Source of the DNA: Patescibacteria group bacterium
Lineage (GTDB): Bacteria > Patescibacteriota > Patescibacteriia > JAACEG01
Assembly: GCA_034660655.1 (NCBI GenBank)
Contig: JAYEJU010000056.1
Coordinates: 1 to 55,461, forward strand
Length of the DNA stretch: 55,461 bases
Direction of reading: 5' to 3'
Shown: in pieces, positions 19,820-21,538 of the stretch
How positions within the stretch are numbered: the stretch's first letter is position 1
Layout: each line of letters begins with the position of its first letter
Made by a program: the position numbers and the translations under genes
The notes under the pieces: model-generated
Databases searched by the model: none
Told to the model about the DNA's origin: nothing
Seen by the model: only the letters and a program-made list of their open reading frames with translations

Positions 19820-21538
19820 ATGTTTAAAAATATATTTTCAAAATTAGTTTACAGAGGAGAAAAAAGCAACAGAAGAAAATATCGCCTTACAGTATTGGCA
19901 ATTATTATTGTCGCTGTTTTTTGTTTTTGTTATGTAACGCCGAATTATTATGATAAAATTATTGATTGGCTAAATCCTAAGATAGGTCAGAATTTTCCGC
20001 ATTTTATTAAAACGCCTTTTCGTTTAGGTCTTGATTTGCAGGGCGGAACGCACTTAGTATATGAAGCTGATGTTTTAAAGATTGAAGGCGAAACAAGCGA
20101 ACAGGGTTTGGCGTTAGAAGGGGTTAGAGATGTTATTGAAAGAAGAGTTAACGCCTTTGGAGTTTCTGAACCAATAGTGCAAACCAATCATTCAGGCGAT
20201 AATTGGAGGCTTATTGTTGAGTTAGCTGGCGTGCATAATGTTGATCAAGCAATTAAAATGATTGGGGAAACTCCGATTTTAGAATTTAAAGAAGAAAATC
20301 ATGAGCCTTCCCGCGAATTAACAGAAAAAGAAAGCAAAGAGATGAAAGAATTTAATAATAAAGCTCTTGAAACAGCAAAAGATATTGTTATAAAAATTAA
20401 TGGAGGAGAAGACTTTGGAGAGCTGGCTAAAGAATTTTCTGAGGATCCAGGCAGTAAAGAACAAGGCGGGGAGCTGGGGTTTGCCCAAAAAGGAATGATG
20501 GTGCCTGAATTTGAAGAAGCCATTTTCGGAGATTTAGAAGTAGGAAAAATAACAGAAGAGCCAATAAAAACTCAATTTGGTTATCATATTATTAAAAAAG
20601 AAGAAATAAAAGGCGGTATACAGCCAGACGGGGTTGACAACACGGAAGTTAGGTCAGCTCATATTTTGATTAGAACAAAATTAGAGGCTGATTTTGTGCC
20701 TCCTGTTGATCCTTGGAAAAACACAGGTCTTTCAGGAAAACAGCTTGTGAAAAGCCAAGTTGAATTTGATCCTAACACAAATGAGCCAGAAGTAGGACTG
20801 ATATTTGATGACGAAGGAAAAGATTTATTTTCTGAGATCACAAAAAGAAATGTTGGCAAAAAGGTTGCGATATTTTTAGATGGAATGCCATTAAGTATAC
20901 CTGTTGTTAATGAACAGATTCGCGACGGCAGAGCTGTTATTTCTGGAGGTTTTGACATTAAAGAAGCGAAAAAATTGTCGCAAAGGTTGAATGCTGGAGC
21001 TTTGCCTGTTCCGATCACTTTAATCAGCCAGAATACTGTTGGAGCAAGTTTAGGGCAAGCATCTTTAGACAAAAGTTTAAAAGCTGGCATTTGGGGTTTT
21101 TGCGCGATAATAATTTTTTTGTTGATTGTTTACAGGTTAAAAGGATTAGTTGCTGCGATAGCTTTAATTATTTACGCTGTTTTTACTCTGTCTTTATTTA
21201 AACTGTTTGGAATTACTTTAACATTAGCGGGATTAGCGGGATTAGTGCTGTCAATTGGAATGGCTGTTGACGCGAACGTTCTAATTTTTGAACGGATGAA
21301 AGAGGAAAAACATTTAGGCAAAACAGGGCTAAGACTTATTGATGACGGATTTTCAAGGGCATGGACATCAATTCGCGACGGAAATATCTCAACACTGCTT
21401 ACATGTTTAATTTTGATTTGGTTTTCCACGAGTATGGTAAAGGGTTTCGCAATTACTTTAATCATCGGCATATTAATGAGTATGTTCAGCGCGGTTGTTG
21501 TGACTATGTTTTTATTAAAAGGTTTTACAAGAAAATAA
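19820..21538 (+). CDS. secD: Protein translocase subunit SecD with an inserted parvulin-type PPIase domain
   Basis: SecD blocks [29 protein letters not shown], ...[18 protein letters not shown] and the six C-terminal TM helices. Residues ~160-287 align to Par10-type parvulin ([26 protein letters not shown]...QFGYHIIKK). Confidence 0.9.
   Translation: [572 protein letters not shown]

Follow-up and report, generated by a model that had tools for sequence, protein, structure and literature searches.

SecD and its parvulin insert

We analyzed a stretch of 55,461 nucleotides, hereafter the window, from a Patescibacteria group bacterium (contig JAYEJU010000056.1 of assembly GCA_034660655.1), in which a secD gene encodes a protein with an additional domain. 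The gene is an intact open reading frame (ORF) of 572 amino acids (aa) at positions 19820–21538 of the forward strand, the strand on which all of its features described below also lie. By all criteria tested, its product is SecD. It scores 368.7 bits against TIGR01129 (NCBIfam cut-off 244.4), matches Thermus thermophilus SecDF (TtSecDF, 3AQP) with E = 1e-76, and scores 93.2, 56.3, and 61 bits against the Pfam families PF22599, PF21760, and PF02355, whose cut-offs are 27, 27, and 20.5.

The known parts of SecD can be followed along the gene. The first transmembrane helix (TM1, aa 17–39; 19868–19936) is a helix in an AlphaFold2 (AF2) model, and its topology is that of the established SecD architecture (PMC5974789); everything from there to TM2 is therefore extracytoplasmic and forms the P1 loop. 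The N-terminal part of the P1 base (aa 64–160; 20009–20299), delimited by Pfam and by alignment with TtSecDF, contains Sec_GG (PF07549, aa 64–84) and SecD_1st (PF21760, aa 101–160) and includes the P1-base strand LEFKEE (20279–20296), which AF2 predicts as a strand at aa 154–159. The P1 head and the return to the P1 base (aa 286–400; 20675–21019), assigned in the same way, include SecDF_P1_head (PF22599, aa 301–397). They are followed by the TM2–TM6 bundle (aa 401–566; 21020–21517), which is covered by SecD_SecF_C (PF02355, aa 400–566); the AF2 helices span aa 17–39 and 413–569. Asp484 in TM4 stands opposite Asp340 in the alignment with 3AQP and is invariant across 43 homologues. This TM4 aspartate is functionally important, according to work on TtSecDF.

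Between the P1 base and the P1 head, ~125 residues (aa ~160–285) take the place of ~27 TtSecDF residues (117–~143). Residues 67–157 align to TtSecDF 33–116, ending at the LEFR/LEFK strand, and confident alignment restarts opposite REELEKDLIKP of TtSecDF and then runs to the end of SecD. By score and motif, the insert is a parvulin, the fold of one class of peptidyl-prolyl isomerases (PPIases). Its core, from α1 to β4 (aa 174–261; 20339–20602), is matched by Rotamase_3 (PF13616, E = 3e-23, 82.9 bits versus a cut-off of 22.5) and Rotamase (PF00639, E = 2e-20, 74.2 bits versus 21.7), and is 40% identical to Par10; the closest solved relative of the insert is PrsA (6vj6, E = 5e-22). An earlier note, made from the sequence alone, had placed a Par10/PrsA-like parvulin within the P1 region at 20297–20680 (aa 160–287), and both the position and the likeness are borne out by these matches and by the presence of the strings that it quoted.

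The same note had held that the first strand of the fold is missing upstream of the core, which agrees with the domain borders. Both Pfam matches are incomplete at the N-terminus, covering positions 28–113 of 116 (PF13616) and 10–96 of 97 (PF00639), rather than a complete, non-permuted domain, and the N-terminal profile positions, those of the xAxHILV strand, find no match in the native-order insert. Upstream of the core, the AF2 model has LEFKEE, a strand of SecD, then a coil of nine residues and a helix at aa 169–194; the linker and this long first parvulin helix (aa 160–194; 20297–20401) have no β1 before them. The canonical order β1-α1-3-β2-α4-β3-β4 is thus not the order of the insert.

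Residues of the active site are present and conserved. In alignments with the Pin1 and Par10 sequences, His281, His256, Asp209, and Thr251 stand opposite Pin1 His59, His157, Cys113, and Thr152, while Leu219, Met227, and Phe231 of the proline pocket stand opposite Leu122, Met130, and Phe134; Par10 His8, His84, and Cys40 fall opposite His281, His256, and Asp209. Asp209 (20444–20446), Thr251 (20570–20572), and His256 (20585–20587) lie in the core. Among 43 homologues of the same length class (55–91% identical), Asp209, Thr or Ser at 251, and Phe or Tyr at 231 are found in all 43 and His256 in 42, and His281 and Ile282 are invariant.

The window SecD is not itself a PrsA, SurA, or PpiD, since the full-length models stay far under their cut-offs. 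Among the PrsA models, NF002824 reaches 88.5 bits (cut-off 360), NF002846 71.9 bits (361), and NF002827 68.9 bits (343), with the parvulin part alone matching, and the SurA model NF008038 reaches 49.6 bits against 394, the window protein having one core and one extra strand.

Position of the first parvulin strand

The β4 strand (aa 254–264; 20579–20611), which aligns with the GYHII strand of Par10 and PrsA, is followed by a hairpin loop (aa 265–275; 20612–20644), a non-strand segment in the AF2 model and a site of insertions in relatives, and by a further strand (aa 276–285; 20645–20674) that contains AHILI and His281 (20660–20662). This trailing strand begins 11 residues past the GYHII strand. 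The earlier note took it, joined by a linker, for the missing first strand, and profile searches, alignments, conservation, covariation, and predicted secondary structure all point in that direction. Very probably, aa 276–285 complete the parvulin sheet in three dimensions. This relocated β1 (β1′) would pair with β4 and lie between β4 and β2 in a four-stranded antiparallel sheet, an arrangement that fits both the AF2 secondary structure and the covariation.

The profile evidence comes from a re-ordering experiment in which the trailing 22-mer was placed before the parvulin core. Nine 22-mers placed there in its stead served as controls; they came from the LEFK strand, from five further strand regions of SecD and one more of its segments, and from the tail reversed or shuffled. 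With the tail prepended, PF13616 is matched from position 13 of its profile onwards (90.8 bits) and PF00639 from position 1 (80.2 bits), versus starts of 28–35 (84.9–87.6 bits) and 8–16 (76.6–79.9 bits) for the controls. Of these 10 segments, only the tail extends the two Pfam matches as far as the beginning of the domain. LEFKEE was also considered as the parvulin β1 and rejected: it has no motif, it is a conserved strand of the P1 base, and as a control it gave no Pfam extension.

Re-ordering improves E-values against solved structures ~100-fold over the native order. The re-ordered sequence covers residues 4–94 of 99 in the PrsA fragment 6xd8, with the trailing strand opposite EIKASHILVKDE, and residues 4–91 of 93 in 2m08. 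In BLASTP, it aligns to Par10 7–88 and to the entire Pin1 PPIase domain, from ALHILV/RVRCSHLLV to GYHIIK/HIILRTE. The trailing strand also aligns to EIKASHILV of PrsA.

Covariation was examined in 237 SecD–parvulin fusions gathered from the homologue list, from representatives of 50%-identity clusters, and from species-representative genomes. A script called 150 of them single-module, of which 138 have His at both the β4 and trailing-strand positions, 5 have lost both (Asn/Arg), 4 are discordant, and 3 are misclassified long forms, that is, relatives of ~680 aa with two parvulin modules. Among 74 aligned long forms, the β4 His of the outer module occurs in two only (P0083 and P0087, 65% identical to each other), and these are also the sole two with a His in the trailing strand. 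This joint keeping or loss of His256 and His281 is as a direct contact between them would predict and is suggestive of one, though no statistical proof; it fits poorly with a strand of SecD or a vestige.

The AF2 model of the window SecD, built from a 43-sequence alignment, has a mean predicted local distance difference test score (pLDDT) of 80.7, with block values of 86–90 over aa 171–260 and 81–86 at the strand 276–285. It contains all canonical parvulin elements except the N-terminal strand, and then strand 254–264, an 11-residue loop, and strand 276–285. In a Foldseek search of the Protein Data Bank with the whole model, the 50 matches listed were SecDF and resistance-nodulation-division (RND) transporters only, a result that has no bearing on the trailing strand.

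An alternative is that the AHILI strand stands outside the parvulin fold, as a strand of SecD P1 or the vestige of a deleted parvulin, which would leave an N-terminally truncated, three-stranded domain. Indeed, phmmer sets EVRSAHIL opposite TtSecDF 133–140 inside one continuous alignment, and the AHILI segment also aligns to β1 of the second SurA parvulin, which is consistent with a vestige. However, the TtSecDF alignment across these residues is of low confidence and has no common motif, confident homology being found from TKLEADF only; in a SecD strand or a vestige, one would not expect a His that is invariant and whose loss goes together with that of the His in the neighboring β4; and AF2 predicts a confident strand directly after a loop of hairpin size. 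From what is known of the fold, a parvulin sheet without its central strand is also unlikely to form. We therefore regard this alternative as very unlikely.

Several observations nevertheless weigh against a relocated first strand. The Pfam gain on re-ordering is small (3–6 bits), though specific to the tail. The His pair is discordant in P0018 (Glu/His), L050 (His/Asn), L034 (His/Glu), and L075 (His/Gln), and in three long forms with Glu/His, and the covariation of His256 and His281 rests on few independent evolutionary events. The predicted template modeling score (pTM) of the AF2 model is only 0.50.

Relatives and gene surroundings

A survey of SecD architectures, proposed in the earlier note, recovered the same fusion far more widely than chance would allow. 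All 120 of the 120 best database homologues (NCBI, JGI, ENA, Logan) combine Rotamase and SecD domains, and at least 237 fusions were collected overall. The homologues split into two length classes of ~570 and ~680 aa, and three variants can be told apart within the Patescibacteria/Parcubacteria group: the intact permuted module of the window, a degenerate module with an apparently nested canonical one, and a degenerate module alone.

In the long forms, a degenerate core without β1 (β4 = GxNIL) is followed by a linker and a canonical β1 (ASHILICY), then by a full core with GFHII, a second linker, the trailing strand WRVLVRTK without His, and the SecD head. The inner module keeps His356 in all 74 aligned long forms and His264 in 73. 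The AF2 model of one long form (P0046, mean pLDDT 81.1) has two unbroken 24-residue strands (244–267 and 354–377, block pLDDT at least 90) that link both modules. One of its parvulin modules, presumably the inner one, superposes with Foldseek on complete parvulins with template modeling (TM) scores of 0.85–0.86 and root-mean-square deviations (rmsd) of 2.4–2.9 Å (6xd8, TM score 0.85, rmsd 2.4 Å; 2jzv, TM score 0.86), and the model also aligns over ~250 columns to SurA. The simplest reading of this model is that a canonical parvulin is nested in the β4-β1′ hairpin through an antiparallel two-stranded ribbon. If, as presumed, it is the inner parvulin that superposes on complete parvulins, the trailing strand is left for the outer core, which on the simplest reading it completes, in agreement with the His pattern. 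Tandem, self-contained permuted units are less likely than nesting because of the unbroken linking strands, the superposition on complete parvulins, and the pairing of His between the outer core and the trailing strand. A Cys-x6-Cys pair (P0046 aa 268 and 275) in the β1-α1 loop of the inner parvulin is invariant in the 74 long forms and absent from the window SecD; it is likely to form an extracytoplasmic disulfide.

The hairpin loop appears as a hot spot for insertions in other relatives as well. It holds a ~60-aa low-complexity expansion rich in Gly, Val, and Glu in P0127 (aa ~260–320) and P0141 (aa ~240–300), both of which keep the His-bearing trailing strand; in P0141 (905 aa), SecD and SecF are fused. 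Five genomes (L066, L070, L072, L079, and L080) have a single degenerate permuted module, with Asn in β4 and Arg in the trailing strand, and no inner domain. Most motif residues are gone from these degenerate-only modules, which resemble the outer module of the long forms.

In a scan of species-representative genomes with a 173-aa probe, the best 80 loci matched the whole probe or its first 170 residues, and 425 candidate stretches were confirmed as related to some part of it. Of the 150 best matches in a profile search over 1.8 billion representatives of 50%-identity clusters, local hidden Markov models identified 40 as SecD fusions; since multi-parvulin proteins score equally high, this search gives no clean count of the fusion. 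Named records include ‘Patescibacteria group’ and six candidate groups (Falkow-, Buchanan-, Uhr-, Komeili-, Kuenen-, and Magasanikbacteria), and the NCBI taxonomy places these in the Parcubacteria group. These phyletic limits rest on record titles, several of which are apparently mislabelled: many genomes, L001, L002, L016–L018, and L080 among them, are titled ‘uncultured Gammaproteobacteria’ (binchicken third-party annotation, TPA, assemblies), Lysobacteraceae, or Candidatus Udaeobacter, which are probably placeholders or wrong labels.

The window comes from a metagenome-assembled genome (MAG; record P0001 is titled ‘MAG: ... Patescibacteria group bacterium’), NCBI having an identical SecD under such a MAG, and a chimeric contig or the read-through of two genes could in principle mimic such a fusion. 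However, the 120 best homologues show the same in-frame architecture, as do sequences from 40 different clusters at 50% identity and the 80 top-ranking loci of species-representative genomes, and the insert lies inside one domain of a single ORF with SecD sequence on both sides. The chance of an assembly or gene-calling artefact is accordingly negligible.

The gene neighborhood is that of an ordinary chromosome, with dnaG, corA, gltX, secD, secF, a CofE-like gene, HlyD/ABC genes, and uppP. The partner subunit gene secF (21635–22690, forward strand) is listed 96 nt downstream of secD and scores 288.3 bits against TIGR00966 (cut-off 160), the match beginning at aa 28. The listed ORF opens with a 26-aa Cys-rich leader (21635–21712), MTNSCYSQYCHPQLDCGL, and the true start is probably Met27 at 21713, which would make the spacer between secD and secF ~175 nt. 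The G+C content of the window is ~29%; its G+C-richest 2-kb blocks are 20001–22000, which covers the secD region, and 48001–50000, with 0.355–0.356 versus ~0.29 elsewhere. For the secD region, the probable reason is that the amino acid sequence of a conserved membrane protein is constrained, not that the DNA is foreign.

The gap of 724 bp between gltX and secD (19096–19819) contains only short, overlapping, broken ORFs (19133–19249, 19170–19289, and 19286–19477) and is possibly what is left of a small gene; no ORF resembling yajC was recognized there. Further downstream, a 468-aa ORF after uppP (27132–28538) has a bacterial thrombospondin type-3 repeat (PF18884) and is possibly a secreted or surface protein, hence a potential Sec substrate. 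An L10 leader (Rfam RF00557, 48.5 bits versus a gathering threshold of 44) lies at 29531–29623, upstream of ribosomal-protein ORFs from 29672.

Function, origin, and significance

It is probable that the window protein is a functional SecD whose P1 loop holds a complete, circularly permuted parvulin, acting as a tethered foldase or holdase. The permuted unit, with the order α1 ... β2 ... β3-β4-loop-β1, occupies the junction at which the P1-base strand LEFKEE gives way to the P1 head. His281, provided by the relocated strand, may rebuild the hydrogen-bond network of parvulins together with His256, Asp209, and Thr251, and the residues of a hydrophobic proline pocket (Leu219, Met227, and Phe231) are retained as well. 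Tethered at the hinge of P1 head and base, the domain would sit beside the element that catches chains leaving SecYEG, and such a cis-acting parvulin could encounter secretory proteins while these are still unfolded and emerging, and hold them, isomerize their prolyl bonds, or both. The earlier note had also proposed that a foldase is fused directly to a translocon accessory subunit; the fusion itself is confirmed, and PPIase activity is what the conserved residues suggest. Because the module of the window keeps the residues of both the network and the proline pocket, catalytic competence is the default reading, and catalysis and action on translocating substrates are predicted. No further parvulin gene was found within the 55-kb window.

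It is also possible, although less likely, that the insert is mainly a non-catalytic holdase or a structural module that enlarges the P1 head, with isomerization incidental or absent. Such a role would resemble that of the parvulin domains of PpiD and SurA P1, which are largely inactive; it does not exclude a tethered foldase and differs from it in which activity matters. The ~680-aa relatives speak for it, as their outer module has lost both His and most motif residues and yet is always kept, and so do the five genomes with a degenerate module alone; that a module stays after losing its catalytic residues implies that it does more than catalyze. These same degenerate-only relatives, which have neither His, count against the tethered foldase, since catalysis cannot be the universal reason for retaining the domain; with the degenerate outer modules retained, binding or scaffolding must matter alongside it. 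However, the network and pocket residues are strongly conserved in the class to which the window SecD belongs, and degeneration of the outer module is usually accompanied by an added canonical module with a near-invariant His pair, which suggests that catalysis is under selection. The tethered parvulin with a PPIase-competent active site thus stays our preferred reading for the window protein.

The P1 head of SecDF is mobile, and precursor proteins can be crosslinked to its cavity (PMC5974789). More speculatively, and with a rather low probability in our view, a swing of the P1 head driven by the proton-motive force could bring the parvulin up to the SecY exit and pull it back again, giving an energy-coupled, co-translocational isomerase or holdase that would replace free chaperones of the PrsA, PpiD, or SurA type in these reduced genomes; the double parvulin of the long forms would then be a rigid, two-site substrate clamp linked by its β-ribbon.

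Canonical SecDF is the best match of the window protein in both structure and sequence. The window SecD shares TM1, the P1 base and head, TM2–6, the TM4 aspartate, and the secF partner with SecD and SecDF proteins (3AQP/5YHF and Deinococcus 5XAM), but the solved SecDF structures all lack a parvulin, which the window SecD has at the junction of base and head. With PpiC/Par10 (1JNS), Pin1, and PrsA (6VJ6, 6XD8, and 2JZV), the insert shares the dual His, Asp/Cys, Thr, the Met/Phe pocket, and all parvulin secondary-structure elements. Unlike in these proteins, its β1 comes after β4 and the domain is embedded in the loop of a membrane transporter; it also lacks the phosphate-binding loop of Pin1.

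Parvulins next to the Sec machinery are known from several systems. PrsA of Firmicutes is likewise an extracytoplasmic parvulin beside the Sec exit of a single-membrane envelope, with its parvulin inserted within another fold. However, PrsA is a lipid-anchored lipoprotein foldase at the membrane–wall interface, whereas the window SecD has neither a lipobox nor an NC chaperone domain, and its tether is covalent. In the E. coli holo-translocon, PpiD-YfgM and SurA are parvulin chaperones at the periplasmic exit: PpiD-YfgM associates with SecYEG (PMC9643414), and AlphaFold puts the two parvulin domains of SurA on the SecDF P1 head (PMC9987972). These are separate proteins bound non-covalently, in contrast to the parvulin of the window, which is fused in cis and, judging from its residues, looks catalytically intact. 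In another reduced-genome bacterium, Mycoplasma pneumoniae, the parvulin lipoprotein Mpn444 crosslinks to SecD (bioRxiv 10.1101/2024.09.05.611430). Mpn444 and Mpn436 are likewise parvulin PPIases adjacent to SecD, but they are separate giant lipoproteins with extra domains rather than SecD insertions, and no permutation is reported for them. By analogy with these systems, the fusion is most likely a covalent version of the contacts that PpiD, PrsA, and SurA make with the Sec machinery.

As for its origin, the permuted unit was probably captured, or truncated, out of register from tandem parvulin repeats. The β4-linker-β1′ segment of the window SecD aligns to the point where SurA parvulin domain 1 joins domain 2, and many of the profile matches are tandem parvulin arrays in which the junctions are similar. 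A fragment running from α1 of one repeat through β1 of the next would be exactly the permuted unit. Its duplication could give the linear order of the long forms, and recombination between their two β1 strands could give the short form again; relatives would later have nested a canonical parvulin in the β4-β1′ hairpin, after which the outer parvulin degenerated. The earlier note had read the permutation as accommodating the insertion; the permuted order is supported, but insertion does not need it, because the inner canonical parvulin of the long forms apparently inserts equally well. The permutation is therefore probably a by-product of repeat boundaries.

In the literature we found no description of a SecD–parvulin fusion or of a circularly permuted parvulin, although most subscription journals lay outside our coverage and this absence is not proof. 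The combination of SecD and parvulin domains is already visible in precomputed Pfam annotations. As only the generic SecD equivalog reaches its NCBIfam cut-off, these proteins are annotated as plain SecD, occasionally as ‘peptidylprolyl isomerase, partial’. It appears that this circular permutation of a parvulin has so far gone undescribed, and its three states (intact, degenerate with an apparently nested module, and degenerate alone) together trace how permutation, domain nesting, and catalytic loss can succeed each other.

As a natural Rosetta-stone fusion, the protein supports the still mostly model-based idea that SurA, PpiD, PrsA, and Mpn444 act at the P1 region of SecDF, where the translocon has its exit, and it offers a single-polypeptide system for the structural study of the hand-over between translocon and chaperone. 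It also marks a lineage and adds to the envelope biology of a large group of uncultured Patescibacteria, about whose machinery for secretion and folding little is known.

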